Shown: positions 4,185 to 64,000 of the stretch, one piece after another
Layout: each line of letters opens with the position of its first letter
How positions within the stretch are numbered: the stretch's first letter is position 1
Source of the DNA: Prorocentrum cordatum
Taxonomy: Eukaryota
Assembly (NCBI GenBank): GCA_963575745.1
Contig: CAUYUJ010000298.1
Span: forward strand, 1 to 64,000
Length of the DNA stretch: 64,000 nucleotides
Reading direction: 5' to 3'
Position numbers and translations under genes: made by a program
Notes under the pieces: generated by a model
What the model was told of the DNA's origin: nothing
Seen by the model: only the letters and a program-made list of their open reading frames with translations
Database searches by the model: none

Positions 4185-4207
4185 CTAGAGCCGAGATGTC
4201 TTGAGCC
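4185..4207 (-). other. Dinoflagellate spliced-leader 3' tail plus relict SL at the LINE 5' end
   Basis: Minus strand reads GGCTCAAG (last 8 nt of DinoSL DCCGTAGCCATTTTGGCTCAAG; GGC is shared with the target), then ACATCTCGGCTCTAG, which matches the 15-nt relic CCATTTTGGCTCAAG at 11/15. Confidence 0.65.
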
Positions 4208-4386
4208 GGGAACCTCGTAGAGCTCCTTGTATCCGTGAGAAAGCTCAGGATCAAAGCAAGAGCTTTTGGGAGCTTTTCTACAAAAACTTCAAGTTTAGAT
4301 TTTTCAGAGTCAACATGAAGTCGGTTCCTCCAAGTGAACTGGCACTAAAAATGGCTCTAGAGGACTGAGCTGCTCAGGAAACAAAG

Positions 4387-4672
4387 TTTATTATAATTTA
4401 TCTTCAATTTATATATTTGTGTTTATTCTGGTAATTTATTTTTTATAATTTTTCTATATTATATATTTTATTATTATTATTTATAATATTATGTTATTAT
4501 ATTAGAATATAATTATATTTTCGTATTATATTTTTATATTTATTGTCATTTATTTGATTGGTTTATTTAATACGGTTTGATATTTATTTAGTTTTAGTTT
4601 TGTTGTTAATTTTTATTAATAATAAATAAGTTTATGTTTATTTTTATATTTTATATATATTTATATATATAT
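4387..4672. repeat. AT-rich low-complexity tract (degenerate (TA)n expansion) inside an F1 element
   Basis: Nearly all A/T. The flanks (acaaagtt…atgtcaatgctcgg) rejoin to the F1 sequence seen uninterrupted at ~24720-24745. Confidence 0.8.
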
Positions 4673-7600
4673 GTCAATGCTCGGAGTAAAAAAATCTGCT
4701 TTCTCAGAATGAATTGTCAAATATCCTTCAAAAAATTGCAAAACCACCCAAAAGTTACCACTTTGTCCTTTCTGGCCGGGTCGACCAACTAGCTCCACCC
4801 CGCGCCGGAATTCCTCTAGCTCATCGATGCCGAAGAGCTCTACGAGGTATATCTTTCAAAAAATCGCAAAACCATCCAAAAGTTGTCCCATTCTCCGCCT
4901 CAGCCGGGTGCGCCAACTGGCGCCGGCGGTGAACGGTCAACCTGGTCACCGCCGGGAACCTCGTAGAGCTCCTAGCACGCGTAAGAGTGCTCAGCATCAA
5001 AAGAGAGGGCTTCTGGAAGCATTTCTCAAAAAAAGAGAAAACCTGATTTTTTTATGTCGACATGAAGTTGGTTGCGCCAAGTGTTTTGATAGTAAAAGTG
5101 AATCTAGAGAGCTCACATTAAGACGGAGAGGCCCTCATAGTCGTTCACAGGTGCGAAAAATCTGCTTTCTCAAAATAAATGGTCAAATATCTTTGAAATA
5201 TTTGCAAAACCACCCAAAAGTTATCACACTGGGCGCCGGCGGTAAACCGTCAACCTTTCTTACCGCCGGGGGACTCGTAGAGCTTCCTGAGAATATATAA
5301 GGTTTCCAGACCTCTCGGATGCAACAGCCGAACGCCCCCGATACTTCTGGATTGTCTTCTGTACGAGCTCTCTAGCTCTCCTACAGCCCGAGTTACGTGC
5401 GCAAATTGACAGCACCTCTCATGATGACTCGAACAATACGAAGAGTTTGGCAAACATAGCTCGAGTATCAGACCGAGGTCAGACCTCTGCATGCGACAGG
5501 CGGACGTGTCTGATGTCTCTGAATCGATTCCTGTGATTAACAGCCCTGCAGCCCCCCCTATAGCCTCAGTTAAGTGCAGAAAACCGACAGCATCTCTCAG
5601 GATTCGAACAACACGAATAGTTTTACGGACCTAGTTCGGGCAGCAGACAGAGTTCGGAGCTCTGGATTCGAAAGGCGGACGCGCCTGATGTCTCCGGATC
5701 GATTCCAGTCTCGACCAGCCACGCAGCCCCCCCACAGTCCGAGTTAAGTGCAGAGAACCGACAGCATCTCTCCAGATGACTCGAACAATACAAATAGTTT
5801 CGGGATTCTAGATCGGGCAGCAGACCGAGTTCAGAGCTCTGGATTCAACAGACAACGGCCACTGATAAATCTGAACCAGATCCTGTACGTATGAGCTCTT
5901 TAGCTGTCCTGTAGCTCGAGTTAAGTACAGAAAACCGAGAGCGTCTGTCAAGATGACTCGAATAATACGAATAGGTTTGCGCACCTAGCTCGGCTAGCAG
6001 ACCGATTTCAGACTTCTGGATTCAACACGCGAACGCGCCTGATCATTCTGAGTGGATTAGCTGTGCTTACCAGCTCTGTAGCTGTCCTGAAGCTCGAGTT
6101 ATCTTGAGAAAACCGACACCGCGTGACAAGATGACTCGAAATGGCCGATCCCGCCGAAGCGCTTTTTGGCAGTAAAAGGTACCCGATCGAGCTGAGATCA
6201 AGATGGCGAGCGGGAATAAGATCGAATATCACGGAAAGAAATATTAGAGCTCTAACGAATTGCTGAATTTCAAGAACAAAATTTTCAACCGACCAAAAGT
6301 CAGCAAAAGGTCGGTCGATACTTTTCTTGCCAACTGGGCGCCGGTAAATGTCAACCTTTGTTACCGCCGGGGACTCGTAGAGCTTCCTGACAACATGTAA
6401 TGTCGAAAAAAAACACAGAAAAAAATAGTTTTCAGCCCAAGCAATTTCAGACCTCTCGGATGCAACAGCCGAACGCCCCCGATGCTTCTGGATTGTCTTC
6501 TGCACGAGCTCTGTAGCTCTCTTACAGCCCGAGTTACGTGCGTCAATCGAGAGCACCCATTGGCAAACCTCGCTCGAGTATCAGACCGAGTTCAGACCTC
6601 TGCATACGCGTCTGATATCAGCTAAGTGCAGGAAACCCACAGCACCTCTCAGATTATATTGAACAATACAATAGTTTTACGGACTTAGTTCGGACAGCAG
6701 ACAGAGTTCGAAGCTCTGGATTCGACAGACAGACGCGCCTGATGTCTCCGAATCGATTCCAGTGATTACCAGCCATGCAGCCCCCCTACAGCCCAAGTTT
6801 AGTGAAGAGAACCGACAGCATATCTCAGGATGACTCGAACAATACGAATAGTTTCGCGATAGATCGGGCAGCAGACCAAGTTCAGAGCTCTGTATTCGAC
6901 AGACAAACGCAACTAATAATTCTGAATCAGATTCTGCACGTATTGGCTCTGGAGCTGTCCTCAGGCTCGAGTTGAGAACAGAAACTGAGAGCGTCTGTTA
7001 AGATGAATCGAGTAATACGAATAGGTTTACGGACCTAGCTCGGCTAGCAGACCGAGTTCAGACGTCTTGCTTCAACAGGCAAACGCGCCTGATCATTCTG
7101 AGTGGATTCGCTGTGCTTACCAGCTCTGTAGCTGTCCTGAAGCTCGAGTTATCTTGAGAAAACCGACAGCGCGTGACAAGATGACTCGAAACGGCCGATC
7201 CCGCCGGAGTGCTTTTTGGCAGTGAAAGGTACCCGATCGAGCTGAGATCAAGATGGCGAGCGGGAATGAGATCGAATATCACGGGAAAAAATACTAGAGC
7301 TACAAAGAATTGTTGAATTTTAAGAACAAATTTTTAACCGACCAAAAGTCAGCAAAAGGTCCGTCGAGCTTTTTCTTGCCAACTAGCTCTCCAGCGCCCC
7401 GGAACTGGCGCCGGCGGTGAACCGTCAACCTGGCCACCGCCGGGAACCTCGTAGAGCTCATTTCACGCGTAAGAGTGCTCGGAGTCGAAAGAAAGAGCTT
7501 CTGGAAGCATTTCTCGAAAAAGAAAAAAATTGAATTTTTTCGTGTCGACATAAAGATGGTTCCCCCAAGTGTTTTGATAGTAAAACTGCGCCTACAGAGC

Positions 7601-7740
7601 TCATCCTAAGACAGAGAGGCCCTCATAGTCTTTCACAGGTGCGAAACATCAGGTTTCTCAAAATGAATTGTCAAATATCTTTCAAAAATTCGCAAAACCA
7701 CCCAAAACTGGGCGCCGGCGGTAAACCGTCAACCTTGGTT

Positions 7741-9700
7741 TTTGCTTTGCTCGGAGCCCACAGGGACAGAGGAGTCCCCGCTCAAGATTCAGGTCCGCAG
7801 CAGCGGAGCAGATGCTCGCCATCCAACACGAAGCATCCACGACTCGCCAAAAGCGAGACAGCGGACAACCTACAAGGGATGCTAGTTAGTAAACGTCTCA
7901 CCACGGGGAGTGCACAACAAGGCGAAGCCTTAGAATATGACATGAAGCAACATGTGCAGAAGCCACATTACACTAAAGCGGTCAACAATTACGCAACTCC
8001 AGTATACAAGAGGTTACCAACACGAAACTTTGGATACACATGATTATTGAGGGAGATCCACACTGTTCCGAAATCAGCCACAACCGACCAACAGGCAGAC
8101 CAAACGTTTGGAAGGGAAGGAAACACCCTAACCGTATATATGCGAAGTCCCAAGAAGATAAGCTCCCATTGGGCAGAAAAGGGTCGCTTCAACCCGTGCT
8201 GAGTTTTGGGAGCCAGTTCAATAACGTTTCAACCAACACAGCGATAACTCTAATCCATCGTCTCCAATAGGCGTCCAAGGAAGTGTTGTGCGAGAGACCG
8301 ATAATGAATAGCAAGCCCATCGTGTGCGACTATGTCCTGGAGGGTTCGGAGCATGTCGGGATAACATCCATACTCGAGGAGGTCAGCCCATTCGTGCAAG
8401 AAATGATCCCTCTCCTCCCGAGGGCAGCTTGTGTAAGCCGCTAAGAAGTCGACAACCCATTCAGTCTGCGCACTTTCGAACTCACTATCACTCGATTCCC
8501 CATCGTCATGGTATTTTGGAAACAACATCATGTACGCTCGCAGTCGACTCGGGTCCACATGTGGCCTCGGAAGGAGATGCTGGCATACATCCTCAAACAT
8601 CTCCTCAAACATCTCCTCACACATCTCCTCTGGATCTCTGTCTTCCACTGTTGGGTCCGCACTCGCTCCAACCTCGGACGAAGCTTGATTGGAAGAAACT
8701 TGATTGGAGCAAACTGGATTGGAAGAACCTTGATTTGAAGCTCCAACCTCTGTCGAAGCGCCAACCTCTGACGAAGCTCCAACCTCTGACGAAGCTTCCA
8801 CTGTTGGGTCCGCACTCGCACCAACCTCTGACGAAGCTCCAACCTGGTTTGAAGACACTTGATTGGAAGAACCTTGATTTGAAGGACTGCTCTGGTTGGA
8901 ACAACTGCCCAATTGATTTGAAGAAACTTGATTGGAAGAACCTTGAATTGAATAACTGCCATGATTTAAAGCACTGCCCTGGTTTGAAGAACGGCCATCG
9001 CTTTCCTCTCGCCCCCTCTTGTCGCCTCTTTCCCTGCCTGAAACTCGAGCGGAAGAACTGCCCACCACTGGACCGCTAGGCCTGAAAACTTGAGCGGAAG
9101 AACTGAGGCCGTCAGAATGCACCTGCGAAGGACCAACATGTTCGCCGAGGGCACCAGCCAGATAGATTGTGGCGGGAGCGCGTGTGGTGTCGAACGGAAC
9201 GGTAAACAAGCTATAGTCCACCTCAATCTGCCTCCAGGCAGCCAGAGTCAATCTACGGGTCTTGCGCTTCCAACTGATCGATTTGGGACCAGACACGGGG
9301 GACAGAGTAGGGGAAGTATGAGTGTTGTAACATGCATGCCAGTCGTGACTTATCTGAGACCGCTCACTTGAGTATGAATACCAAGGGGGTCCACCAAGAG
9401 AAGACAACATCGATTAGAGAATAAAAGAAAACTGCAACCAATCTGGAGATCTGTTATCTGTAATGCGTCCTGAGTGCACAACAAATCCACACACGATTGA
9501 AAACTGGCAAGAGTGCAGAGATCGGGCACCGTGATGGCTGTCACGGAGTCTGCGCTTGACTGCGTGCGTGCCCTCGTAACGTAAGCGGAACACAAGCTTT
9601 GCTGGCGTAGGGGCTCTAAACTGGAGGCGAGGTCCAGGCAGAGTTTAAAACCCCTGTCGGATGCGAAGAGCAACCACGCCTTGAGCAACCACGCCTTGAG
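7741..9700 (-). mobile_element. Retroposed insertion (retrocopy or non-autonomous retroelement) with 11-bp TSD
   Basis: Unique sequence flanked by direct repeat CAACCTTGGTT at 7730-7740 and 9701-9711, splitting an F2 3' hairpin. Minus-strand 3' end is …GCAAAGCAAA and 5' end is CTCAAG…. Confidence 0.8.
8250..9410 (-). CDS. Hypothetical protein (386 aa) with SSNQ, ASSEVG and EEMF repeats and an acidic C-terminal region
   Basis: ATG-initiated ORF in the sense of the insertion. Its internal repeats have frame-preserving periods (15, 18 and 12 bp). No family recognised. Confidence 0.5.
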   Translation of the reverse strand: MLSSLGGPPWYSYSSERSQISHDWHACYNTHTSPTLSPVSGPKSISWKRKTRRLTLAAWRQIEVDYSLFTVPFDTTRAPATIYLAGALGEHVGPSQVHSDGLSSSAQVFRPSGPVVGSSSARVSGRERGDKRGREESDGRSSNQGSALNHGSYSIQGSSNQVSSNQLGSCSNQSSPSNQGSSNQVSSNQVGASSEVGASADPTVEASSEVGASSEVGASTEVGASNQGSSNPVCSNQVSSNQASSEVGASADPTVEDRDPEEMCEEMFEEMFEDVCQHLLPRPHVDPSRLRAYMMLFPKYHDDGESSDSEFESAQTEWVVDFLAAYTSCPREERDHFLHEWADLLEYGCYPDMLRTLQDIVAHDGLAIHYRSLAQHFLGRLLETMD

Positions 9701-9701
9701 C
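9671..9701 (-). other. Tandem 15-bp SL-relic-like repeats at the 5' end of the insertion
   Basis: Minus strand reads (G)CTCAAG-GCGTGGTTGCTCAAG-GCGTGGTTG. The 15-nt unit matches CCATTTTGGCTCAAG at 10/15 and ends in GCTCAAG. Confidence 0.45.
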
Positions 9702-11920
9702 AACCTTGGTTACCGCCGGGAGACTCGTAGAGCTTCCTAGCTCGACTTAAGTTGAGGAAACCGATAGCAGCTACCAATATTCCGACTCATAGAATATGTT
9801 TTGATCTCGGAATGCGACAGGCGGACGCGTCTGATGTCTGCGAATTAACTCCTGTCATTACAGCCCTGCAGCTCAGCCCTTGGTTACCGCCGGGAGACTC
9901 GTAGAGCTTCCTAGCTCGACTTAAGTTGAGGAAACCGATAGCAGCTACCAATATTCCGACTCATAGAATATGTTTTGATCTCGGAATGCGACAGGCGGAC
10001 GCGTCTGATGTCTGCGAATTAACTCCTGTCATTACCAGCCCTGCAGCCCGCTACAGGCCGAGTTAAGTGCAGAAAACTGACAGCACCTCTCAGGATGACT
10101 CGAAGAATACAATAGTTTCGCATACCTAATTCGGGCAGCGGACCGAGTTCAGAGCTCTGAATTCGACAGGCGGACGCGTCTGATGTCTTCAAATCGATTC
10201 CTGTGACGACCAGCACTCTAGCCCTCTTAGCGCGAGTTCAGTGAAGAACACCAAGATCACTTCCCAAGATGACTCGACAAATACGAATAGTTTCGCGATC
10301 CTAGATCCGGCAGCAGACCGAGTTCAGGGCTCTGGATTCGACAGACAAACGCAACTGCTGATTCTGAATCGGTTCCTGTAAATATCAGTTCTGTAGCGTT
10401 CCTACAGCTCGAGTTAAGTACAGAACACCGAGAGTTCCTGTCAAGATAACTCGAATAATACGAATAGGTTTGCGGACCTAGCTCGGCTAACAGACCGAGT
10501 TCAGACCTCTAGATTCGAGAGGCGAACGCGCCTAATCATTCTACATCGATTAGCTGTGCTTACCAGCTCTGTAGCTGTCCTAAAGCTCGAGTTATGTTCA
10601 GAAAACTGTCAGCGCGTATCAAGATGACGCAAAACGGCCGATCCCGCCACAGTGCTTTTCGATAGTAATATTCACCCGATCGAGCTGAGATCAAGATGGC
10701 GAGCGGGAATAAGATCATAGATCACGGGACAAAATACTAGAGCTCTAACGAATGGTCAGATTTCGAGAACATAATTTTCAACCGAGCCAAAGTTGTGAAA
10801 AGTTCAGTCGAGATTTTTCGAGCCAACTAGCCTGCCAGCGTTTTCGAATTACTCTTAAGCTTCGCCGCTGCGCTCTCAGGGAAGCTCTACGAGTCAGTTG
10901 CCACATTGTCCGCCACGGCCGGGTCGACCAACTAGCTCCACCCCGCGCCGGAATTCCTCTAGCTCATCGACTGGGCGCCGGCGGTAAACCGTCAACCTTG
11001 GTTACCGCCGGGAGACTCGTAGAGCTTCCTAGCTCGACTTAAGTTGAGAAAACCGACAGCACCTACCAACATTCCGACTTATAGTGACTATTTTCTGACC
11101 TCTGAATGCGACAGGCGGACGCGTCTGATGTCTGCGAATCGACTCCTGTCATTACCAGCTGCAGCCCCCCTACAGCCCAAGTTAAGTGCAGAAAACCGAC
11201 AGCACCTCTCAGGATGACTCGAGCAATAGAGTAGTTTCGCAGACCTAATTCGGCAGCAGACCGAGTTCCGAGCTCTGGATTCGACAGGCGAACGCGCCTG
11301 ATATCTTCAAATCGATTCATGTGACCACCAGCACTGTAGCGCACTCTCAGCGCGAGTTGAGTGAAGAAAACCGAGAGCACTTCTCAAGATGACTCGATCA
11401 ATACGAATAGTTTTGGCGATTCTAGATCGGGCAGCAGACCGAGTTCAGAGCTCTGGATTCGACAGACAAACGCAACTGATGATTGTAAATCGGTTTCTGT
11501 AAATATTAGCTCTATAGCTGTCCTACAGCTCGAGTTAAGTAGAGACAACCGAGAGTTTCTGTCAAGATGACTCGAATTATACTAATAGTTGTGCGACCTA
11601 GCTCGGCTAACAGACCGAGTTCAGACCTCTCGAGTCAACAGGCGAACGCGCCTAATCATTCTACATCGATTAGCTGTGCTTACCAGCTCTGTAGCTCTTC
11701 TAAAGCTCGAGTTATGTTGAAAAAACCGTCAGCGCGCATCAAGATGACTCGAAACGGCCGATCCCGCCACAGTGCTTTTCGATAGTAATATTCACCCGAT
11801 CGAGCTGAGATCAAGATGGCGAGCGGGAATAAGATCGAAAGTCACGGGAAAAAATACTAGAGCTCTAACGAATTGTTGAATTCCGAGAACAAAATTTTCA
11901 ATCGACCAAAAGTCAGCAAA

Positions 11921-12965
11921 CTGGGCGCCGGCGGTAAACCGTCAACCTTGGTTACCGCCGGAGACTCGTAGAGCTTCCTAGCTCGACTTAAGTTGAGAAC
12001 ACCGACAGCACCTACCAACATTCCGACTCAGAGTGTATATTTTTTTGCCTCTGAATGCGACAGGCGGGCGCGTTTGATGTCTGTGAATCGACTCCTCTCA
12101 TTACCAGCCCTGCAGCCCCCCTACAGCCCGAGTTAAGTGCAGAAAACAAACAGCACCTCCCAGGATGACTCGAACAATACAGTAGTTTCGCAGACCTAGC
12201 TCGGGCAGCAGACCGAGTTGCGAGCTCTGCATTCGACAGGCGGACGTGTCTGATGTTCAAACCGCTTCATGTGACCACCAGGACTGTAGCCCGCCTCAGC
12301 GCAGTTTAGTGAAGAAAACCGAGAGCACTTCTCAAGATAACTCGACCAATACGAATAGTTTCGCGATTCTAGATCGGGCAGCAGACCGAGTTCGGAGCTC
12401 TGGATTCGACAGACAGACGCAACTGATGATTCTGAATCGGTTTCTGTAAATATCAGCTCTGTAGCTGTCCTACAGCTCGAGTGAAGTACAGAAAACCGAG
12501 AGTTCCTGTCAGGATGACTGGAATAATACGAATAGGTTTGCGGACCTAGCTCGGCTAACAGACCGAGTTCGGACCTCTGGATTCAACAGGCGTACGCGCC
12601 TAATCATTCTGCATCGATTAGCTGTGCTTACCAGCTCTCTAGCTGTCCTAAAGCTCGAGTTATGTTCAGATAACCGTCAGCGCGTATCAAGATGACTCAA
12701 AACGGCCGATCCCGCCACAGTGCTTTTCGATAGTACTATTCACTCGATCGAGCTGAGATCAAGATGGCGAGCGGGAATAAGATCGAATATCACGGGAAAA
12801 AATACTAGAGCTCAAACGAATTCTTAAATTTCGAGAACATAATTTTCAACTGAGCAAAAGTCACCAAAAGTTCCGTCGAGATTTTTCGAGCCAACTAGCT
12901 CTCCAGCGCGCGGGAATTACTCGGAGCTTCCAGCAATAACTTGCTAAGGGAAGCTCTACGAGTTA
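11921..12965 (-). mobile_element. F2 element, full-length, inserted inside another F2
   Basis: Both termini present. Removing it restores agtcagcaaa|agttccgtcg of the host copy with no TSD. Confidence 0.85.
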
Positions 12966-14033
12966 AGTTCCGTCGAAATTTTTCTTGCCAACTAGCTCTC
13001 CAGCGCGCCGGAATTACTCTTAGCTTCCAGCAACTGGGCGCCGGCGGTAAACCGTCAACCTTGGTTACCGCCGGGAGACTCGTAGAGCTTCCTAGCTCGA
13101 CTTAAGTTGAGGAAACCGACAGCACCTACCAACATTCCGACTCATAGTGAATATATTTTGACCTCTGAATGCGACAGGCGGACGCATCTGATGTCTGCGA
13201 ATCAACTCCTGTCATTACCAGCCCTGCAGCCCCCCTACAGCCCGAGTTAAGAACAGAAAACCGACAGCACCTCCCAGGATGACTCGAACAATACAGTAGT
13301 TTCGCAGACCTAATTCGACAGCGGACCGATTTCCGAGCTCTGGATTCGACAGGCGGACGCGCCTGCTGTCTTGAAATCGATTTCTGTGACCACCAGCACT
13401 GTAGCCCCCCTCAGCGCGAATTGAATGAAGAAAACCGAGAGCACTTCTCAAGATGACTCGAACAATACGAATAGGTTCGCGATTCTAGATCGGGCAGCAG
13501 ACCGAGTTCAGAGCTCTGGATTCGACAGACAAGCGTAACTGATGATTCTGAATCAGTTTCTGTAAATATCAGCTCTGTATCTGTTCTACAGCTCGAGTTA
13601 AGTACAGAAAACCGAGAGTTTCTGTCAAGATGACTCGAATAATACGAATAGGTTTGCGGACCTAGCTCGGCTAACAGACCGAGTTCATACCTCTGGATTC
13701 ATCAGACGAACGCGCCTAATCATTCTACATCGATTAGCTGTGCTTACCAGCTCTCTAGCTGTCCTAAAGCTCGAGTTATGTTCAGAAAACCGTCAGCGCG
13801 TATCAAGATGACTCAAAACGGCCGATCCCGCCACAGTGCTTTTCGATAGTAATATTCACTCGATCGAGCTGAGATCAAGATGGCGAGCGGGAATAAGATC
13901 GAATATCACGGGAAAAAATACTAGAGCTCAAACGAATTCAAATTTCGAGAACATAATTTTCAACTGAGCAAAAGTCACCAAAAGTTCCGTCGAGATTTTT
14001 CTTGCCAACTAGCTCTCCAGCGCGCCGGAATTA

Positions 14034-15082
14034 CTGGGCGCCGGCGGTAAACCGTCAACCTTGGTGACCGCCGGGAGACTCGTAGAGCTTCCTAGCTCGA
14101 CTTAAGTTGAGCAAATCGACAGCACCTACCAATATTCCGACTCTTAGTGAATATTTTTTGACCTCTGAATGCGACAGGCGGACGCGTCTGATGTCTGCGA
14201 ATCGACTCCTGTCATTACCAGCCCTGCAGCCCCCCTACAGCCCGAGTGAAGTGCAGAAAACCGACAGCATCTCTCAGGATGACTCGAACAATACGAATAG
14301 TTTCGCGGACCTAGTTCGAGCAGCAGACAGAGTTCAGAGCTCTGGATTCCAGAGGCGGACGCACCTGATGTCTTCGAATCGATTCCTGTGACCACAAGCA
14401 CTGTAGTCCCTCTCAGCGCGAGTTTTCTGCAGGAAAACCGAGAGCACTTCTGAAGATGACTCGACCAGTACGAATATTTTCGCGATTCTAGATCGGGTAG
14501 CAGACCGAGTTCAGAGCTCTGGATTCGACAGACAAATGCAACTGATAATTCTGAATCGGTTTCTGTAAATATCAGCTCTGTAGCTGTCCTACAGCTGGAG
14601 TTAAGTACAGAAAACCGAGAGTTTCTGTCCAGATGACTCGAATAATACGAATAGGTTTCCAGACCTAGCTCGGCTAACAGACCGAGTTCAGACCTTTGAA
14701 TTGAACAGGCGAACGCGCCTAATCATTCTACATCGATTAGCTGTGCTTACGAGCTCTGTAGCTGTCCTAAAGCTCGAGTTATATTCAGAAAACCGTTAGC
14801 GCGTATCAAGATGACTCAAAACGGCCGATCCCGCCACAGTGCTTTTCGATAGTAATATTCACCCGATCGAGCTGAGATCAAGATGGCAAGCGGGAATCAG
14901 ATCGAATATCACGGGAAAAAATTAGAGCTCTAACGAATTGTTAAATTTCGAGGAAAAAAAATTCAACCAACCAAAAGTCACCCAAAGTTCCGTCGAGATT
15001 TTTCTTGCCAACTAGCTCTCCAGCGCGCCGGAATTACTCTTAGCTTCCAGCAATAACTTGCTCAGGGAAGCTCTACGAGTTA
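14034..15082 (-). mobile_element. F2 element, full-length
   Basis: Starts ctgggcgccggcgg (3' end) and finishes gaagctctacgagtta (5' end). Internal ~177-bp monomers. Confidence 0.8.
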
Positions 15083-23469: not shown

Positions 23470-24140
23470 CAGACCGAGTTCAGAGCTCTGGATTCAACAG
23501 GCGAACGCGCCTGATTATCCTGAGTGCGATAGATGTGCTTACCAGCACTGTAGCTGCCCTACAGTTCGAGTTAAGTAGAAAATACCGACAACGCGTATCA
23601 AGTTGACTCGAGTAATACAAATAGGTTTGCAGACCTAGCTCGGCTAGCAGACCGAGTTCAAAGCTATGAATTCAACAGGCGAACGCGCATGATTATTCTG
23701 AGTGCGATAGGTGTGCTTACCAGCACTGTAGCCGCTCTACAGCTCGAGTTGAGTAGAAAATACCGACAACGCGTATCAAGTTGACTCGAATAATACGAAT
23801 AGGTTTGCGGACCTAGCTCGGCTAACAGACCGAGTTCAGACCTATGAATTCAACAGACGACCGCGCCTGATCATTATCCGTGCGATAGGCGTGCTTACCA
23901 GCACTGTAGCTGCCCTACAGCTCGAGTTAAGTAGAAAATACCGACACCGCGTATCAAGTAGACTCGAATAATACGAATAGGTTTGCGGACCTAGCTTGGC
24001 TAGCAGACCGAGTTCAGTCCTATGGATTCAACGGGCGAACGCGCCTGATGATTCTGAAAGCGATAGCTGTGCTTACAAGCTCTGTAGCTGCCCTACAGCT
24101 CGAGTTAAATGCAAAATACCGACAGCGCATATCAACATGA
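23470..24140. repeat. Locally amplified 178-bp monomer array inside an F2 copy
   Basis: gaccgagttca recurs at 23472, 23650, 23828 and 24006 (exact 178-bp period) with similar monomers. Confidence 0.9.
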
Positions 24141-38030: not shown

Positions 38031-38200
38031 CCTCGTAGAGCTCTTCGGCATCGATGAGCTAGAGGTGGAAGCTTACGCTGGAAGCTTTAGAGTGATTCGT
38101 AGAGCTTCCCTCAGCTAGTTGCTGGAAGCCTAAGAGTAATTCCGGCGCGCTGGAGAGCTAGTTTGACAAGAAAAATCTCGACGGAACTTTTGGTGACTTT

Positions 38201-41199: not shown

Positions 41200-42133
41200 T
41201 AATACCTCGTAGAGCTCTTCGGCATCGATGAGCTAGAGGAATTCCGGCGCGGGGTGGGGCTAGTTGGTCGACCCGGCCAGAAAGGACAAAGTGGTAACTT
41301 TTCTGGGTGGTTTTGCAATTTTTTGAAAGATATGTGACAATTCATTTTGATAAAGCAGATTTTTACTCCGAGCATTGGTATCTTAGCTTTGTTCTCTGAG
41401 CAGCTCTACTATCGAAACACTTGGAGGAACCATCTTCATGTCGACACGAAAAAAAACAATTTTTCCCTTTTTTGAGAAATGTTTCGATAAGCTCTCTCTT
41501 TCGGTTCTGAGCACTCTTACACGTAAAAGGAGCTCTACGAGGTTCCCGGCAGTGGCCAGGTTGACGGTTCACCGCCGGCGCCAGTTCCGGGGCGCTGGAG
41601 AGCTAGTTGGCAAGAAAAATCTCGACCGACCTTTTGGTGAGTTTTGGTCGGTTGAAAATTTTGTTTTCGAAATTCAAGCATTCGTTAGGGCTCTAGTATT
41701 TTTTCCCGTGATATTCGATCTTATTTCTGCTCGCCATCTTGATTTCAGCTCGATCGGGTACCTTTTACTGCCAAAAAGCACTCTGGCGGATCGGCCGTTT
41801 CCAGTTATCTTGATACGCGCTGTCGATATATTGGACTCAACTAGAGATATAGGACATCTACAGAGCTGGTAAGCACAGCTCATCGATTCGGAATGATCCG
41901 GCGCGTTCGTCTGTTGCATCCAGAGGTCTGATCTCGGTCTGCTAGCCGAGCTAGGTTCGCAAACCTATTCGTATTATTCGAGTCATCTTGACAGGTGCTC
42001 TCGATTTTCTGTACTGAACTCGAGCTATAGGACATCTACAGGGCTGACACGTACAGAAATCGATTCAGAATCATCAGGCGCGTTCGTCTGTCGAATCTAG
42101 AGCTCTGAACTCAGTCTGCTGCCCGATCCAGAA

Positions 42134-49794: not shown

Positions 49795-49818
49795 ATATAT
49801 ATATATATATATATATAT
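49795..49818. repeat. (AT)12 microsatellite inside an F1 element
   Basis: Perfect AT run at the gatat position of the F1 consensus. Confidence 0.95.
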
Positions 49819-52800: not shown

Positions 52801-55800
52801 CTTGATCTCAGCTCGATCGGGTATCTTTTACTGCCAAAAAGCACACTGGCGGGATCGGCCGTTTCGAGTTATCTTCATACGCGTTGTCGGTATTTTTGTG
52901 CTTAACTCGAGCTGTAGGGCAGCTACAGAGCTGGTAAGCACACCTATTCCATTGAGAATCATCAGGCGCGTTCGTCTGTTGAATCCAAAGGTCTGAACTC
53001 GGTCTGCTAGCCGAGCTAGGCCCGCAAACCTATTCGTATTATTCGAGTCATCTTGACAGACGCTCTCGGTTTTCTGTACTCAACTCGAGCTATATAACAG
53101 CTACAGAGCTGATACTTACAGAAACTGATTCAGAATGGTCAGTCGCGCTCGTCTGTTGAATGGAGAGCTCTCAACTCGGTCTGCTGCCCGATCTAGAATC
53201 GCAAAACTATTCGTATTGCTCGAGTCAGCTTGAGAGGTGCTGTCGGGTCTCTGTATTCAACTCGGGCTGCAGTGCTGGCAGTCACAGGGATCGATTTCAA
53301 AACATCAGGCGCGTCCGCCTGTCGAACCCAGAGCTCGGAACTCGGTCTGCTGCCCGAACTAGGTCCGCAAAACTATTCGTACTGTTCAAGTCATCCTGAG
53401 AGGTGCTGTTGGTTTTCTACACTCAACTCGGGCTGCAGAGGGGCTGCAGGGCTGGTAATCACAGGAATCGATTCGGAGACATCAGACGCGCCCATCTGTC
53501 GCATTCAGAGGTCTGGAATCGGTCTGATACTCGAGCTAGGTTTGCCAAACTATTCGTATTGTTCGATTCATCTTAGAGGTGCTGTCGATTTACGCACGTT
53601 ACTCGGGCTGAAGGAGGGCTACAGAGCTCGTACATCCAAAAGCATCGGGGGCGTTCGGCTGTTGCATCGAGAGGTCTGAAATCGCTTGGGCTGAAAAATT
53701 AGTCGTTCTCAACAATTTTTTCTCACATTATATATTGCCGGGAAGCTCTACGAGCCCCCCGGCGGTAAGAAAGGTTGACGGTTTACCGCCGGCGCCCAGT
53801 AACTCGTAGAGCTTCCCTTAGCAAGTTATTGCTGGAAGCTTAAGAGTAATTCCGGAGCGCTGGAGAGCTAGTTGGCAAGAATAATCTCGACGGACCTTTT
53901 GGTGACTTTTGGTCGGTTAAAAATAACTCGTAGAGCTTCCCTTAGCTAGTTGTTAGAGACTTAAGAGTAATTCCGGCGCGCTGGAGAGCTAGTTGGCAAT
54001 CAAAATCTAGACGGACCTTTTGGTGATTTTTGGTCGGTTGAAAATTTTGTGCTCGAAATAACTCGTAGAGCTTCCCTTAGCAAGTTAATGCTCGAAGCTT
54101 AAGAGTAATTCCGGAGCGCTGGAGAGCTAGTTGGCAAGAAAAATCTCGACGGACCTTTTGGTGACTTTTGGTCGGTTGAAAATAACTCGTAGAGCTTCCC
54201 TTAGCTAGTTGCTGGAAGCTTAAGAGTAATTCCGGCGCGCTGGAGAGCTAGTTGGCAAGAAAAATCTCGACGGACCTTTTGGTGACTTTAGGTCGGTTGA
54301 AACTTTTGTTCTCGAAATTCAACAATTCGTTTGAGTTCTAGTATTCTTTCTGACCATATTCGATCTTATTCCCGCTCGCCTTCTTAATCTCAGCTCGATC
54401 GGGTAAATATTTCTGCAAAAAAGCATCGCGGCGGGATCGGCTCTTTCGAGTCATCTTGAAACGCGTTGTCGCTATTTTGCACTTAACTCGAGCTGTAGGG
54501 CAGCTACAGAGCTCATTCTTACAGGAATCGATTGCAAATCATCAGGCGCGTTCGTCTGTCCCATCTAGAGGTCTGAACTCGGTCTGCTGCCCAAGCTAGG
54601 TCCGTAAAACTATTCGTGTTGTTCGCGTCATCTTGAGAGGTGCTGTCAGTTTTCTGCACTTAACTCGGGCTGTAGGGTTGCAACAGGGCTCGTACTGACA
54701 GGAATCGATTCGGAGACATCAGGCGCGTCCGCCTGCCGAATCCAGAGCTCAGAGCTCGGTGTGCTGCCCGAGCTAGGTTTGTATTCGTGGAGTCATCTTC
54801 AGAGCTGCTCTCCGTTTTCTGCACTTAACTCGAGCTGTAAGGGGGCTGCAGGGCTGGTAATCACTGGAATCGATTCGGAGACATCAGTCGCGTCCAGCTG
54901 TCGCATTCAGAGCCCTGAACTCGGCCTGCTGCCTCCGCGAAACTATTCGTATTGTTCGAGTCATCTTCAGAGGTGCTGTCGATTTTCTGCACTTAACTCG
55001 GGCTGTAAGGGGGCTGCAGGGCTGGTAATCACAGGAATCGATTCGGAGACATCAGGCGCGTCCGCCTGTTGCATTCAGATGTCTGAACTCGGTCTGGTAC
55101 TCGAGCTAGATTCGCGAGACTATTTGTATTGTTCGAGTGATCTTGAGAGGTGCTGCCGATTTTCGCACGTAACTCGGGCTGTAGGAGAGCTACGGAGCTC
55201 GTGCGCACAGAAAACAATCCAGAAGCATGAGGAAGTTTGGCTGTTGCATCGAGAGGTCTGAAATCGTGTAGGCTGAAAAACTATTCGTTCTCTGCAGTTT
55301 TTTTTCGACATTATATATGGTCAGGAAGCTCTACGAGTCCCCCGGCGGTAAGGAAGGTTGACGGTTTACCGCGGGCGCCCAGTGTCGTTCCCGAAATTCA
55401 ACAATTCGTTTGAGCTCTAGTAACTCGTAGAGCTTCCCTTAGCAAGTTATTGCTGGAAGCTTAACAGTAGTTCCGGGGCGCTGGAGAGCTAGTTGGCAAG
55501 AAACATATCGACGGACCTTCTTGGTGACTTTTGGTCGGTTGAAAATTTTGTTTTCGAAATTCAACAATTCGTTTGAGCTCGAGTATTTTTTCCCATGATA
55601 TTCGATCTTATTACCGCTCGCCATCTCGATCTCGCCTCGATCGGGTATCTTTTACTGCCAAAAAGCACACGGGCGGGATCGGCCTTTTCAAGTCATCTTG
55701 ACACGAGATGACGGTTTTCTGAACATAACTCGAGCTTTAGGACAGCTACAGAGCTGGTGAGCACAGCTAATCGGTTCAGAATGATCAGGCGCGGTCGCCT

Positions 55801-58800
55801 GTTGAATCCAGGTCTGAACTCGGTCTGCTAGCCGAGCTAGGTCCGCAAACCTATTCGTATTATTCGAGTCATCTTGACAGACGCTCTCGATTTTCTGTAC
55901 TTCACTCGAGCAACAGGACAGCTACAGAGCTGATAGGACAGAAACCGAGTCAGAATCATCAGTGGCAGTTGTCTGTTGAATCCGGAGCTGCACTCGGTCT
56001 GCTGCCCGATCTAGAATCGCGAAACCGTTCGTATTGTTCGAGTCATCTTGAGAAGTGCTCTCGGTCTTCTGCACTCAACTCGGGCTGAGGGGGGCTACAG
56101 TGCTGGTGGTCACAAGAATCGATTTGAAGACATCAGGATCGTCCGTCTGTCGAATCCAGAGCTCGGAACTCGGTCTGCTGCCCGAACTAGAATCGCGAAA
56201 CTATTGTATGTCATCCTGAGAGGCGCTCTCTGTTTTTTGTGTACTTAACTGGGGCTGTAGGGGGGGTTACAGTGCTGGTCACAGGAATCGATTCGCAGGC
56301 ATCAGATGCGTCCGCCTGTCGCATTCAGAGGGCTGAACTCGGTTTGATACTCGAGCTGGGTTTCCAACCTATTCGTTTTGTAGAGTCATCTTGAGAGGTG
56401 CTGTCGGTTTCCGCCCGTAACTCAAGGAGAGCTACAGAGCTCGTAAACAAGACAATCCAAAAGCATAGGGGGCGTTCGGCTGTTGGATCGAGAGGTCTGA
56501 AATCGCTTGGGCTGAAAAACGGTTCGTTCTCTGCATTTTTTCCCCCATTATATATTGTTAGGAAGCTCTACGAGTCCCCCGGAGGTAAGAAAGGTTGACG
56601 GTTTACCGCCGGCGCCCAGTATCTTTTCTGACCATATTCGATCTTATTCCCGCTCGCCTTCTTAATCTCAGCTCGATCGGGTAAATATTTCTGCAAAAAA
56701 GCATCGCGGCGGGATCGGATGTTTCGAGTCATCTTGATACGCGTTGTCGGTATTTTGTACTTAACTCGAGCTGTAGGGCAGCTACAGAGCTCATTCTCAC
56801 AGAAATCGATTGCAAATCATCAGGCGCGTTCGTCTGTTCCATCTAGAGGTCTGAACTCGGTCTGCTGCCAGAGCTAGGTTCGCGAAGCTATTCGTGTTGT
56901 TGGAGTCATCTTGAGAGGTGCTGACAGTTTTCTGCACTTAACTCGGGCTGTAGGGGGGCTACAGGGCTCGTGCTCACAGAAATCGATTCGGAGACATCAG
57001 GCGCGTCCGCCTGCCGAATACAGAGCTCGGAACTCGGTGTGCTGCCCGACCTAGGTTCGCAAAACTATTCGTATTCGTCGAGTCATCTTGAGAGGTGCTG
57101 TCCGTTTTCTGCACTTAACTCGAGCTGTAAGGGGGCTGCAGGGCTGGTAATCACTGGAATCGATTCGGAGACATCAGTCGCGTCCAGCTGTCGCATTCAG
57201 AGCCCTGAACTCGGCCTGCTGCCGGAGCTAGATCCGCGAAAATATTCGTATTGTTCGAGTCATCTTCAGAGGTGCTGTCGATTTTCTGCACTTAACTCGG
57301 GCTGTAAGGGGGCTGCAGGGCTGGTAATCACAGGAATCGGTTCGGAGACATCAGGCGCGTCCGCCTGTTGCATTCAGATGTCTGAACTCGGTCTGATACT
57401 CGAGCTAGATTCGCGAAACTATTTGTATTGTTCGAGTGATCTCGAGAGGTGCTGTCGATTTTCGCACGTAACTCGGGCTGTAGGAGAGCAGCGGAGCTCG
57501 TGCGCACAGAAAACGATCCAGAAGCATGAGGGGCGTTTGGCTGTTGCATCGAGAGGTCTGAAATCGTTTAGGCTGAAAAACTATTCGTTCTCTGCAATTT
57601 TGTTCGACATTATATATGCTAAGGAAGCTCTACGAGTCCCCCGACGGTAAGGAAGGTTGACGGTTTACCGCCGGCGCCCAGTTCCTCAATTCGTTTGAGC
57701 TCTAGTATTTTTTCCCGTGATATTCGATCTATTCCCGCTCGCCGTCTTGATATCAGCTCGATCGGGTACCTTTTACTGCCATAAAGCACACTGGCGGGAT
57801 CGGCCGTTTCGAGTCATCTTGATACGCGTTGTCGGTATTTTCTACTTAACTCGAGCTGTAGGGGAGCTACAGAGCTGGTAAGCACACCTATTCCATTCAG
57901 AATCATCAGGCGCGTTCGTCTGTTGCATCTAGAGGTCTGAACTCGGTCTGCTAGTCGAGCTAGGTCCGTAAACCTATTCGTATTATTCGAGTCATCTTGA
58001 CAGACGCTCTCGGTTTTCTGTACTTATCTCGAGCTATATAACAGCTACAGAGCTGATAATTACAGAAACCGATTCATAATGATCATTCGTGTTCGTCTGT
58101 TGAATGCAGAGCTCTCAACTCGGTCTGCTGCCCGATCTAGAATCGCGAAACTGTTCGTATTGTTCGAGTCAGCTTGAGAGGTACCGTTGGGTCTCTGTGC
58201 TCAACCCGGGCTGTGGGGGGGCCACAGTGCTGGCAGTTACAGGAATCGATTTGAAGACATCAGGCGCGTTCGCCTGTCGAATCCAGAGCTCGGAACTCGG
58301 TCTGCTGCTCGAACTAGGTCCGCAAAACTATTCGTATTGTTCGAGTCATCCTGAGAGGTGCTGTCGGTTCTCTGCACTCAACTCGGGCTGTAGAGGGCTG
58401 CAGGGCTGGTAATCACAGGAATCGATTCGGAGATATCAGACGCGACCGCCTGTCGCGTTCAGAGGTCTGAAATTATTCGTATTGTTCGATTCATCTTGAG
58501 AGGTGCTGTCGATTTACGCATGTTACTCGGGCTCTACGAGGGCTACGGAGCTCGTAAAGAAGACAATCCAGAAGCATCGGGGGCGTTCGGCTGTTGCATC
58601 GAGAGGTCTGAAATCGCTTGGGCTGAACAATTATTCGTTCTCAACAGTTTTTTCACATTATATATTGTCAGGAAGCTCTACGAGTCCCCCGGCGGTAAGA
58701 AAGGTTGACGGTTTACCGCCGGCGCCCAGTTGGACCACCCGACCAGAAGAGACAATGTGGCAACTTTGGGGTTGGTTTTTCCCGGAGAGCTCTCTGAGAG

Positions 58801-59130
58801 CAAGAGGGTTTTAGATTAGAAGCCAGACAGTGGTGGTGCCCGCCAGCAGCCCACCCCCGCCGCTCCACGATCCCCGCAGCAGATCGCCCGTGCCGGCAGC
58901 GGGTTCGGGGGCGCTTCCAGCACGCGCCCACGCGTGCCCTGCGCGCGCGCAGGCACGCGTGGAAGCGTTTCTCTGGCAGCGCTTCAGAAGCGCTTCTGGT
59001 GAGCTCCCGAGAGCCCTCCAGGGAAGATTTCCCGTTCCGATTCCGAAGGTCTCTTCGCTCTGCAGGTTTTAGACGCTACCAAGTAACTTGTTGAGCTTCC
59101 ATTAGCTAGTTGCTGGAAGCTTACGAGTAA

Positions 59131-60024: not shown

Positions 60025-60423
60025 TACCTCGTAGAGCTCTTCGGCATCGATGAGCTAGAGGAATTCCGGCGCGGGGTGGAGCTAGTTGGACCACCCGATC
60101 AAAAGAGACAGTGTGACAACTTCGGGTCGGTTTTCCTAAGATTTGGGAGATATTTGACAATTGATTTTGAGAAACCAGATTTTTCGCACCTGTAAACGAC
60201 TATGAGAGTCTCTGCGTCGAAATGTGAGCTCTGTAGGCGCACATTTACTATCAAAACACTTGGGGCAACCATCTTCATGTCGACATGACAAAAAATCAAT
60301 GTTGGATGTTTCGAGAAATGCCTCCAAAAGCTCTCTCTCCCAACTCTGAGCTCTCTCATGAGTGAAAAGAGCTCTACGAGGTTCCTGGCGGTGACCGGGT
60401 TGACGGTTCACGGCCGGCGCCAG
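60025..60423 (+). mobile_element. F1 element, full-length (399 bp), placed directly after the CCAG end of another F1
   Basis: Left junction …ggcgccag|tacctcgtag and right junction …ggcgccag|ttggccgaacc. Confidence 0.85.
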
Positions 60424-63400
60424 TTGGCCGAACCGGCCTTAAGAGACAAAGTGGTGACTTTGGGTCGGTTCTGCTAAGATTGATAAATATTTGACAATTC
60501 ATTTTAAGAAACCAGATTTTTCTCACGTGTAGTGGGTTATGCCTCGGCTGCCAGTTAAATTCTCATGTCGGTAGCTGCAATATTACTACCAGAAGACTTG
60601 CATGAACAGACTTTGGATGAAAACCGAAAAATCGTGTTTTTCGAGTTTCTCTGCTCTCGCTTCAGAAGCTTCCTTCATGTGCTCCGAGGAGCGCTGTGCA
60701 AGAAAAGAGCTCTACGAGGTGCCCGGCGATAACTTGGTTGACGGTAAACCGCCGGTTCCCCCTCCGGCGCGGGGTGGAGCTCGTAAGTCGTAGAGCTTCT
60801 CTGGGCAAATTGCTCGAACCTTAAAAGTAATTCCGGCGCGCTGCAGAGCTAGTAACTCGTAAAGCTTCTTTGAGCTAGTTGCTGGAAGCTTAAGAAAATA
60901 CCTCGTAGAGCTTTTCGGCATCGATGAGCTCGAGGAATTCCGGCGCGGGGTGGAGCTAGTACCTCGTTGAGCTCTTCGGCATCGATGAGCCGGAGGAATT
61001 CCGGCGCGGGGTGGAGCTAGTTCGCCGACCCGACCAGAAAGGACAATCTGATAACTTTTAGGTGGTTTTGCGAATATTTGAAAGATATTTGTCCATTCAT
61101 TTTGAGAAACCAGATTTTTCGCATCTGTAGACGACTATCAGGGCCTCTGCGTCTTGATATGAGCTCCCCAGGCGCACTTTACTATCAAAACACTTGGCGG
61201 AACCAACTTCGTGTCGACATCAAAATCATGAATTTTGATTCCTCCGAGAAATGATTTCAGAAGCTCTATCTTCCGACTCTGAGCACTCTTATTCGTGAAA
61301 AGAGCTCCGCGAGGTTCCTGGCGGTGACCAGGTTGACGGTTCACCGCTGGCGCCAGTACCTCGTAGAGCTCTTCAATCTCGATGAGCTGGAGGAATTCCG
61401 GCGCGGGGTGGAGCTGTACCTCGTAGAGCTCGTCGGCATCGATGAGCCAGAGGAATTCCGGCGCGGGGTGGAGCTTGCTGGTCGAGCCGACCAGAAAGGA
61501 CAATGTGGCAACTTTTGGTCGGTTTTCCGAATACCTCGTGGAGCTCTTCGGCAACGATGAGCTGGAGCAATTCCGCGCGGGGTGGAGCCAACTCTGGGTC
61601 GGTTTTGCTAAGATTTGAAATATATTTGACAATTCAGTTTGAGAAAGCAGATTTTCAGCACCTGTGAACGATTATGAGGGCCTCTGCGTCTTAATATGAG
61701 CTCTGTAGGCGCATATTTACCATCAAAACACTTGGCGGAACCAACTTCATATCGACATGAATAAAAACCAACTTTGCCTTTTTCGCGAAATGCTTCCAGA
61801 AGCTCTCTCTGTCGATTCTAAGCACTCTCACGCGTGGAAGGAGCTCTACGAGGTTCCCGGCGGTGACCAGGTTGACGGTTCACCGCCGGTGCCAATATTT
61901 GAAAGATATTTGACCATTTATTTTGAGAAAGCGGATTTTTCGCACCTGTAAAAGATTATGAGAGCCTCTGCGTCTTAATATGAGCTCTCTTGGCGCACTT
62001 TTACTACTGAAACACTTGGACCAACCTACTTCATTTCGACATGAAAAAAATGTTCAATTTTTCAAGAAATGCCTCCAGAAGCTCTCTTTTTGGACTCTGA
62101 GCTCTCGGGGAGCTCTACAGGGTTCCCGGCAGTGACCAGGTTGACGGTTCACCGCCGGCGCCAGTTGGTTGACCCGATCAGAAGGGACAAACTGATAACT
62201 TTTGGGTGGTTTTGCGAAAATTTGAAAGATATTTGACCATTTATTTCAAGAAAGCAGAATTTTACGCGTAGCATTAGTATCTAAACTTTATTCTGAAAGC
62301 AGATCAGCTCTCTGCAGAAAGTTTTACAATTCGAAAATGAGCGGGAACCGACGTCGGAGTTACATCGAAAAATAGAAAGTTGACGTTTTTCGAGAAAGGC
62401 CTGGAGAAACTGTCTGCTTCGATTCTGAGCACGGTCCACGAAACGAAGATGCAAAATTTGAAAAACAGATTTTTCGATATTTTTCTTTCACGCTTGAGAA
62501 AGCTTCTTTCGTGTGCTTCGAGCAGCGCCGCGCGAGAACAGAGCTCTACGAGGCTCCCGGCGGTTACCTGGTTGACGGTTTACCGCCGGATCCAGTTGGC
62601 CGACCCGACCAGAAGAGACAATGTGGCATTTTTGGGTCGGTTTTGCTAATATTTGAAAGATATTTGACCATTCATTTTGAAAAAGCAGATTTTTACGCCG
62701 ATTATTTTTCTGCTTTCAATCTAAGCACTCTTACGCGTGGAAAGAGCTCTACGAGGTTCCCGGCGGTGACCAGGTTGACGGTTCACCGCCGGCGCCAGCG
62801 CCTCGTAGAGCTCTTCGGCATCGATGAGCTGGAGGAATTCCGGCGCGGGGTGGAGCTGGTACCTCGTAGAGCTTTTCGACATCGATGAGCTAGAGGAATT
62901 CCGGCGCGGGGAGCTAGTTGATCGACCCGGCCAGAAAGGACAATGTGGCAACTTTGGGTCGTGAGAGCTCTGTAGGCGCACTTTTACTTTCGAAACACTT
63001 GGCGGAACCAACTTTATTTTGAGATGGAAAAAACTCAATGTTCAATTTTTTTCGAAAAATGCTTCCAGAAGCTCTCTCTTTCGGCCCTGAGCACTCTCAC
63101 GCGTGAAAGGAGCTCTACGAGGCTCCCGGCGGTGACCAGGTTGACGGTTCACCGCCGGTGCCAGTTGGCGGACCCGGCCTTAAGAGACAAAGTGGTGACT
63201 TTGGGTCGGTTTTGCTTCGATTTAAAAGATATTTGACCATTCATTTTGAGAGACCAGATTTTTCGCACCTGTAGTTGGTTATGCCGCGTCTGCCAGTCAA
63301 ATTCTCAGGCCCGTCTGTGCAGTATTACTATCAAAACACTTGGAACCGACTTGGATAAAAACAGAAAGACGTTTTTTTTTTGTTTCTCGATTTTTTCGTT

Positions 63401-64000
63401 TCTCGCTCTGGAAGCCTTCTTCATGTGTTTCGAGAAGCGCAGTGTGAGAAAAGAGCTCGACGAGGGTCCCGGCGGCAACCTGGTTGACGGTATACCGCTG
63501 GTTCCCAGTTTCGGCGTGCTGGAGAGCTAGTTCGCGAAAAGCTTCCAGAAGCTCTCTCTGTCGATTCTAAGCACTCTCACGCGTGGAAGGAGTTCTACGA
63601 GGTTCCCAGCGGTGACCAGGTTGACGGTTCACCGCCGGCGCCACTTCCGGCGGGCTGGAGAGCTAGTTGGCAAGAAAAATCTCGACGGACCTTCTGGTGA
63701 CTTTTGGTCGGTTGAAAATACCTCGTAGAGCTCTTCGTTATCGATGAGCTAAGAGGAATTCCGGCGCGGGGTGGAGCTAGTACCTCGTAGAGCTCTTCGT
63801 TATCGATGAGCAAGAGGAATTTCGGCGCGGGGTGGAGCTAGTTGGTCGACCCGACCAGAAAGGACAAAGTGGCAACTTTTGGGTGGTTTTGCGAATCTTT
63901 GAAAGATATTCGACCATTTATTTTGAGAAAACAGATTTTTTGCACCCGTGAATGACTATGAGGGCCTCTGCGTCTTTTCATGAGATCTTTAGGCGCACTT

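Follow-up and report, generated by a model that had tools for sequence, protein, structure and literature searches.

Among rolling-circle transposons, those of the Helitron2/Helentron kind (class HLE2) are, to our knowledge, the least understood, and we know of no account of what guides their choice of target. Here we describe a 64,000-nt stretch of Prorocentrum cordatum DNA (contig CAUYUJ010000298.1 of assembly GCA_963575745.1, positions 1 to 64,000 of the forward strand; hereafter the window), in which a block resembling a satellite is confirmed to consist of three related families of non-coding mobile elements, F1, F2 and F3, that have fixed termini and insert precisely, leaving no target-site duplication (TSD). 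The closest described systems, quoted here from excerpts of the cited reports, share a distinctive anatomy. HINE elements carry subterminal inverted repeats (subTIRs) of 12-15 bp, of which one lies 2-4 nt from the 5′ end and the other 38-60 bp from the 3′ end; they also have a 3′ palindrome of 5-10 bp, 8-35 bp from that end. Their targets are T-rich and left unmodified, and tandem repeats are frequent, occupying the centre of the element in some families (PMC4067079). Helitron2 elements possess asymmetric repeats (ATIRs) of 8-15 bp, a 5′ hairpin, a 3′ hairpin just past the 3′ repeat and a 5′ T (PMC3627910), and the HLE2 class inserts between T and T (PMC11417382). In the Pacific oyster, Cg_HINE holds short monomer arrays (the 100-500 bp class was screened; SAT-2_CGi, ~168 bp) between two HINE modules (PMC7492417). 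The literature on Helitrons and TSD-less hairpin elements in dinoflagellates yielded a single Helitron2-like RepHel (HUH nuclease plus helicase), that of Symbiodinium microadriaticum, which has no endonuclease domain and branches outside Helitron2 and Helentron (PMC8788227), together with bulk repeat counts (PMC9087856), and no description of arrays such as the present one was found in it.

The left flank of the window (1-4204) is unique, and the repeat block that extends from 4205 to the window end shows no self-similarity to it. From 4205 onward, 54,698 of 59,796 bases (91%) align, in 197 pieces, to one of three reference elements chosen as clean copies, and the unaligned remainder is mostly made up of a 1,964-bp stretch (7737-9700) and a 353-bp AT-rich stretch. 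F1 measures ~399 bp, F2 ~1.2 kb and F3 ~305-326 bp. Copies are 70-90% alike, and their 5′ region diverges by 3-14% from the consensus. Tandem Repeats Finder detected short arrays only, with a 177-bp unit present in 1.8-4.8 copies per array and further units of 60-61, 90, 121 and ~246-290 bp; the 177-bp unit forms the central tandem repeats of F2, while F1 and F3 have none. The array and the reference copies are laid out as follows.

4205-64000, no strand assigned: whole array of mutually nested F1, F2 and F3 copies; the left edge is a truncated F1 and the right edge is cut by the window end.
60025-60423, plus strand: F1 reference, 399 bp; 5′ inverted repeat at 60026-60039, 3′ partner at 60369-60382, then the hairpin and a CGCCAG terminus.
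55421-56619, plus strand: F2 reference, 1199 bp; 5′ TA, inverted repeat at 55423-55437 and fold-back at 55431-55461.
~55687-56343, plus strand: interior of the F2 reference, 177-bp repeats.
56561-56575, plus strand: 3′ partner of the F2 reference, followed by hairpin arms at 56579-56588 and 56603-56612 and the tail CGCCCAG.
58779-59083, plus strand: F3 reference, 305 bp; 5′ TT, then CCCGGAGAGC, a degenerate 3′ partner at 59057-59066 and the terminus GCTACCAAG.

The F1 reference sits head-to-tail behind the 3′ end of another F1, and its right flank is host F1 sequence from position 62. The F2 reference is an exact nested insertion at host F2 position 163/164, and the F3 reference is inserted into F1 at host position 109/110.

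The elements share an 11-nt core motif, CTCGTAGAGCT, which occurs 109 times on both strands of the window versus 0.11 times expected from shuffled sequence. The occurrences fall into two classes, 48 being the reverse complement of the 3′ module and 61 corresponding to 5′ ends. The initial annotation, made from the sequence alone, had each family start with T and pair a 5′-terminal inverted repeat with a partner located inside the 3′ end, and both features are borne out: T is element position 1 in 50 of the 61 5′ ends (TAA 23, TAC 23), and the partner is present in all 45 aligned F1 and F2 3′ ends. The 5′ repeat comprises 14 nt from position 2 in F1, 15 nt from position 3 in F2 and 10 nt from position 3 in F3. 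The F1 pair, ACCTCGTAGAGCTC / GAGCTCTACGAGGT, is found in 17 + 18 copies and the F2 pair, ACTCGTAGAGCTTCC / GGAAGCTCTACGAGT, in 25 + 27 copies; the sequences of the two families diverge at each end of the repeat, in one arm as in the other. For F3, the 5′ motif reported earlier was recovered (10 copies), but its proposed 3′ partner, GAGCTCTCCAGGAA, occurs only once, as had been cautioned, and was rejected in favour of GCTCTCCGGG, which lies 17 nt from the 3′ end and is found exactly or with 1-2 changes in most of the nine F3 ends. Across the families, the two arms of the repeat co-vary (GCTC/GAGC, GCTTCC/GGAAGC, and ACCTCG/CGAGGT versus ACTCG/CGAGT).

Downstream of the partner, each of the 45 aligned F1/F2 ends has a spacer of 3-5 nt, a hairpin with a 10-bp stem and a 14-nt loop, and the ending CGCC(C)AG; a 3′ hairpin followed by a CCA(A)G end had been annotated for every family. 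The distance from partner to terminus is 41 nt in F1 and 44 nt in F2. In F3, the partner is followed by a mini-hairpin of 4 bp only (TTGG...CCAA) and a final G, giving a CAAG end. When the F1/F2 alignment was scored for the 3′ hairpin, 97% of cells were paired, compared with 24-64% when the partner was slid, and one compensatory pair splits F2 from F1 (A-U in 18 and G-C in 16 distinct rows). The 5′ fold-back of F2, which uses part of the 5′ repeat, is also well formed (z −4.6, 89.7% paired). An Rfam search returned no match. Conservation is concentrated at the ends: in F1 it is 0.90 at the termini versus 0.61-0.87 in the interior, and in F2 it reaches 0.91 over the first 100 columns and 0.94 over the last 55, falling to 0.35-0.58 just upstream of the 3′ module.

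To examine the insertions at nucleotide resolution, both flanks of 16 candidate nested insertions were compared by hand with an uninterrupted copy of the host family; for three of the 16, provisional coordinates were moved by 1-3 nt to the established termini. In 15 of the 16 cases the host was restored exactly, with no duplication, no loss and no TSD. The five insertions singled out in the initial annotation (starting at 11921, 34418, 38201, 39987 and 42134) are all exact as well and all lie before a T on the element strand, and at least ten more are equally exact. The named insertions and the larger nested structures of the array are listed below.

11921-12965, minus strand: F2 in F2, host position 98/100.
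34418-35624, plus strand: F2 in F1, at the hot spot 61/62 (CTAG^TTGG).
38201-38526, plus strand: F3 in F2, host position 111/112; exact, no TSD.
39987-40312, minus strand: F3 in opposite orientation in F2; host restored exactly, own-strand site TAG^T.
42134-43359, plus strand: F2 inside the 177-bp repeat zone of another F2, host position 596/597.
4917-25614, minus strand: outermost of four concentric shells, 20,698 bp, within a single F1 split at 61|62.
5229-25527, 6334-25455 and 7405-25405, minus strand: inner shells, in F1 at 87|88, in F2 at 72|73 and in F2 at 50|51, respectively.
25246-26412, minus strand: stack of 5′-terminal fragments (F2 1-47, F2 1-72, F3, F3, F1 1-61, F1 1-86, F2 1-73, F2 2-49 and so on).
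26517-27253, plus strand: orientation switch; F3(+) copies, then F2(+), in opposite orientation within F2(−), everything to the right being plus.

The four shells enclose 20,698, 20,299, 19,122 and 18,001 bp, and in each of them a 5′ fragment at 25.4-25.7 kb is mirrored by a 3′ remainder at 4.9-7.4 kb, the host coordinates of the two being exactly complementary. The fragments of the 25246-26412 stack are the left halves of interrupted host elements. Because the same hot spots were reused, automatic parsing of the stack mis-paired fragments, and we relied instead on the nucleotide-level comparisons and on a blind test in which 5′ and 3′ ends were paired by bracket matching alone, with 2000 shuffled pairings as the control. 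Adjacent host coordinates were obtained in 12 of 38 clusters, compared with 3.35 ± 1.44 (maximum 9) in the shuffled pairings.

We then analysed where the elements had landed. Of 52 3′ ends, 49 have T as the next base (38 of 41 when distinct contexts are counted). On the other side, 45 of 56 distinct contexts show a purine immediately before the 5′ end (A 24, G 21), with AG^T and AA^T accounting for 15 of the 56 each. With a T at the first element position and another just past the terminus, the boundary can be drawn in two ways, one base apart. Of 131 junction flanks, 114 have the same orientation as the resident host, nine have the opposite orientation and eight could not be mapped; in F2 hosts 35 of 40 flanks fall within the first 165 of 1199 nt (13.8% expected), and in F1 hosts all 31 fall within the first 130 of 399 nt, it being understood that these are counts of flanks, in which one insertion gives up to two and duplicated blocks are not independent events. 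The preferred positions are homologous between families, F1 39/40 corresponding to F2 50/51 and F1 61/62 to F2 72/73. Insertion into the 5′-proximal part of a host in the same orientation leaves the 5′ fragments piled on one side and the 3′ remainders on the other. This oriented, 5′-proximal self-insertion, giving nested shells, is the main architecture of the block and is absent from the initial annotation. The flip of orientation in mid-window, and the change of sign of the AT skew that accompanies it, result from two opposite-orientation insertions into F2; at this point (26517-27253) the two halves of the array diverge, their 5′ ends facing each other.

In two places one F1 follows another head-to-tail after a spacer of 3 nt, TAA at 41199-41203 and TTG at 50437-50441. 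The TAA-spaced pair is consistent with one insertion at each of the adjacent hot spots F2 47/48 and 50/51.

An exact search with the 24-nt 3′ arm matched 11 marine metagenome contigs, and gave no match in viral contigs or prokaryote genomes. Eight of the 11 contain the repeat core and the hairpin; of the other three, one is truncated at the contig start, another shows just the hairpin, and the third is unrelated. Contig L006, and probably L002 too, were set aside as not carrying the same kind of element. In all nine contigs having the CAG terminus, a T follows it. L007 matches an F2 of the window at 91% identity over 814 nt; L005 and L009 also resemble F2, and L004 resembles F1. In L001, L003, L008, L010 and L011, only ~55 nt of the 3′ module match the window. 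L010 holds a whole element of ~1 kb with a matched repeat of its own (GCAC/GTGC), which makes a fourth family. In L004 and L005, the sequence past the terminus was recognised by eye as a homologue of the F2 48-51 hot spot. Finding one 3′ module attached, in some contigs, to unrelated interiors suggests that marine eukaryotes harbour a wider group of such families, as yet undescribed. Among these contigs, L008 has two 3′ modules ~0.9 kb apart (1-29 and 943-989), and a variant near 1186 with a different, shorter hairpin. L003 has, 1.6 kb downstream of its 3′ module, a fragment of an RVT_1 reverse transcriptase (2709-3227; 29.1 bits against a cut-off of 29.6), which probably belongs to an unrelated neighbouring retroelement.

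The features of Helitron2 and HLE2 elements found in the window are the inverted-repeat pair, the subterminal 3′ repeat upstream of a hairpin and insertion without TSD. Like the HINE and DINE-1 elements, F2 is non-coding, with a 15-nt repeat 2 nt from the 5′ end, a partner 44 nt from the 3′ end, a 10-bp stem and 177-bp repeats, although its palindrome stem ends 7 nt from the terminus, ~1 nt closer than the quoted range; F1 is similar, its repeat being 1 nt from the 5′ end and the partner 41 nt from the 3′ end (PMC4067079). HINEs differ in favouring T-rich or TT sites and in having runs of T at their ends, where F1-F3 have a single T and a preceding purine, and systematic oriented self-insertion does not appear in the excerpted HINE description (PMC4067079). 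Nor is a Helentron partner with an endonuclease domain known for F1-F3. With the Helitron2 elements of Chlamydomonas and other organisms the families share ATIRs, a 3′ hairpin (which in Helitron2 comes directly behind the 3′ repeat), a 5′ T and the usual lack of a TSD, and F2 also a 5′ hairpin using the 5′ repeat, but the Chlamydomonas families insert after TTTT (PMC3627910). Overall, F2 has, at least approximately, every structural item of the Helitron2/HINE anatomy and F1 and F3 have most of them, whereas the T-T rule is followed only in part.

Other described elements resemble those of the window in more limited ways. In Cg_HINE, too, satellite-like repeats have been spread by transposition without TSD, but the oyster copies are dispersed and use TT targets, whereas those described here are nested in one block of at least 60 kb, and the word 'nested' is absent from the oyster text (PMC7492417). 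FoHeli elements of Fusarium have Helitron2-like termini, family-specific targets other than T-T (TNAT^A), a one-base ambiguity of the boundary owing to a terminal T and rare insertions beside the 5′ end of another copy; they differ in being autonomous and 6-11 kb long, and self-insertion in them is anecdotal in the excerpted account, not a rule (PMC5148889). The RepHel of Symbiodinium microadriaticum would be, for a window of dinoflagellate origin, the obvious candidate for the class of autonomous partner (PMC8788227). Canonical Helitrons (HLE1) share precise TSD-free insertion, a 3′ hairpin near the end and cleavage before a 5′ T and a flanking T, and A^T is among the sites used by F1-F3. They were nevertheless ruled out by their ends, which are 5′ TC and 3′ CTRR instead of TA(A/C) or TT and CCAG or CAAG, by their lack of an inverted-repeat pair, and by the base before the site, which in the window is G nearly as often as A and not A only. 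A DDE transposon with terminal inverted repeats, or a miniature derivative of one (MITE), was likewise rejected, as there is no duplication at the 15 exact insertions and the 3′ repeat is internal, not terminal.

Taken together, these observations make it probable (we would put the probability at roughly 0.7) that the block consists, as the initial annotation had proposed, of three related non-autonomous rolling-circle-type families of the Helitron2/Helentron kind (HLE2, HINE-like), here nested in one another. The three non-coding families, the fixed termini, the precise TSD-free insertion and the published anatomy all uphold that proposal, and the T-T target does not, since the site here is purine^T. 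Mobilisation would be by a RepHel encoded elsewhere, which would nick between purine and T at the 5′ end and peel off the top strand, use the hairpin and the pairing between the inverted repeats to recognise the 3′ end, cut after CCAG and transfer the single strand into a single-stranded target. Self-targeting in the same orientation and close to the 5′ end would be expected if the strand unwound by RepHel at resident 5′ ends were the preferred target.

A number of results weigh against assigning the block to the Helitron2/Helentron kind or against so simple a history. The target reads purine^T and not the T-T usual for HLE2: TT stands after the junction in just 24 of 41 distinct contexts, and T^T is readable in those 24 only. 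The 3′ repeat of Helitron2 is described as 20-30 nt from the end, while that of F1 and F2 lies at 41-44 nt (the HINE range) and that of F3 at 17 nt (PMC3627910). Pfam searches of the ten longest open reading frames (ORFs) of the window, and of 58 ORFs from ten of the related metagenome contigs, revealed no Rep or helicase; with 91% of 4205-64000 taken up by element sequence, the window itself has no room for a RepHel gene. Regarding secondary structure, covariation in the 3′ hairpin amounts to one pair, effectively one event, and folding energies of the 3′ module were no better than those of GC-matched shuffles, which is why the hairpin was judged by pair counts. A 5′ fold-back had been annotated in every family, but outside F2 it was indistinguishable from shuffles (F1, z −1.2; F3, z −0.9), and within the F2 fold-back there is no covariation. 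As to the history of the array, one of the 16 insertions checked by hand has flanks from different host positions, and 26 of the 38 bracket-matched clusters do not restore host continuity, owing to orphan ends and to reuse of hot spots. Under the patterns used, 5′ ends outnumber 3′ ends (79 versus 52), in part because the remainders of the plus-oriented nest lie past the window end. Divergence from the consensus did not rise with nesting depth (rho +0.44, p 0.17; rho +0.29, p 0.36) in a test that used the conserved 5′ part and is confounded by subfamilies. Deletion, recombination and at least one segmental duplication have also shaped the array. The latter is the following feature.

34028-38201, plus strand: tandem segmental duplication of a multi-element block of ~1.85 kb; 34028-36344 and 35899-38201 are 90% identical and repeat the same junction.

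Could the families be real TSD-free transposons moved by another enzyme, either a single-tyrosine HUH Rep without helicase (Replitron-/IS200/IS605-like) or a tyrosine or serine recombinase acting on a circular intermediate (Crypton-/IS607-like)? We consider this unlikely, although no transposase was seen in the window or in the ORFs of the related contigs. The joined ends and their targets are identical over 1-3 nt at most, and identity of this extent is too little for recombinase crossover sites. The case for a Replitron-like enzyme is that insertions of Replitron-1 are orientation-specific and lie immediately 3′ of a purine-G motif (PMC10288648), which recalls the purine preceding the 5′ end in 45 of 56 distinct contexts here, and that all HUH transposons share subterminal hairpins and insert precisely (PMC10288648). 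Replitrons, however, carry short direct terminal repeats (PMC10288648), whereas no direct repeat of 6 nt or more exists between the first and last 30 nt of F1, F2 or F3, the longest common word being 4-5 nt, and the layout of asymmetric inverted repeats plus hairpin is the published diagnostic of Helitron2 and HINE (PMC4067079, PMC3627910).

That the block is instead a satellite or higher-order repeat, grown by unequal crossing-over and microhomology-mediated recombination with the termini as recurrent breakpoints, is very improbable and already contradicted by the data. The tandem duplication at 90% identity does speak for such a process, as do the junctions that fail to restore host continuity and a 3.1-kb pair at 9.9-15.1 kb that is 88% alike; yet in this pair five successive 3′ junctions all differ. 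The order of the array is nested and not periodic, with only one block being a true tandem duplicate. Breakpoints always fall at the same two nucleotides per family while the partner varies (the 52 3′ junctions represent 41 distinct contexts and the 79 5′ junctions 56), and interrupted hosts resume at x+1 past whole elements, even across 18-20.7 kb in mirrored order. Furthermore, an insertion in inverted orientation obeys the same rule, and in other contigs the same termini flank unrelated interiors. Equally improbable is a collapsed or chimeric assembly of dispersed repeats. In its favour, the sequence is repeat-rich, but the copies are 70-90% alike and not identical, and mirrored, exactly complementary junctions 18-20.7 kb apart are unlike chimeric joins.

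The oriented preference of these Helitron2/HINE-like elements for the 5′ part of their own kin is new here, and it is unusual. One tentative explanation, on balance doubtful, is that they are self-homing rolling-circle transposons, for which the single strand exposed at a resident 5′ end would be the preferred, strand-specific landing pad. If so, a family would grow by burrowing into its own newest members, building satellite-like, strand-polarised domains tens of kb long and perhaps marking chromosome strand-switch regions. Whatever the enzyme, the block is a natural record of dozens of insertions that obeyed three clear rules, going into purine^T sites, within the first 130-165 nt of resident copies and on the same strand, and it offers a concrete route from transposon to satellite-like DNA that is independent of unequal crossing-over. 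Repeat annotation based on period alone would misread such regions.

Several further features of the window are of a different nature. At 7737-9700, the loop of one F2 3′ hairpin holds an unrelated sequence of 1,955 bp with a 9-bp direct repeat, CAACCTTGG, on either side; the sequence and its duplicated 9-bp end together make up the 1,964 bp. The unrelated sequence looks like a different, TSD-forming insertion, and its 387-codon open frame, in which SSNQ-like repeats are abundant, had no Pfam match. A 174-bp unit, present at 9704-10047 in two copies that are 99% identical, duplicates the F2 3′ end region and is far younger than anything else in the block. The F1 at the left edge of the array is interrupted by a low-complexity stretch of 353 bp that is nearly pure A+T (4337-4689). 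In the unique flank, a 575-codon open frame on the minus strand (2457-4184) has two unnamed database homologues with 43-44% identity (E 4e-84 and 5e-81) and is probably a real gene; it shares its direction with the adjoining minus-oriented elements.

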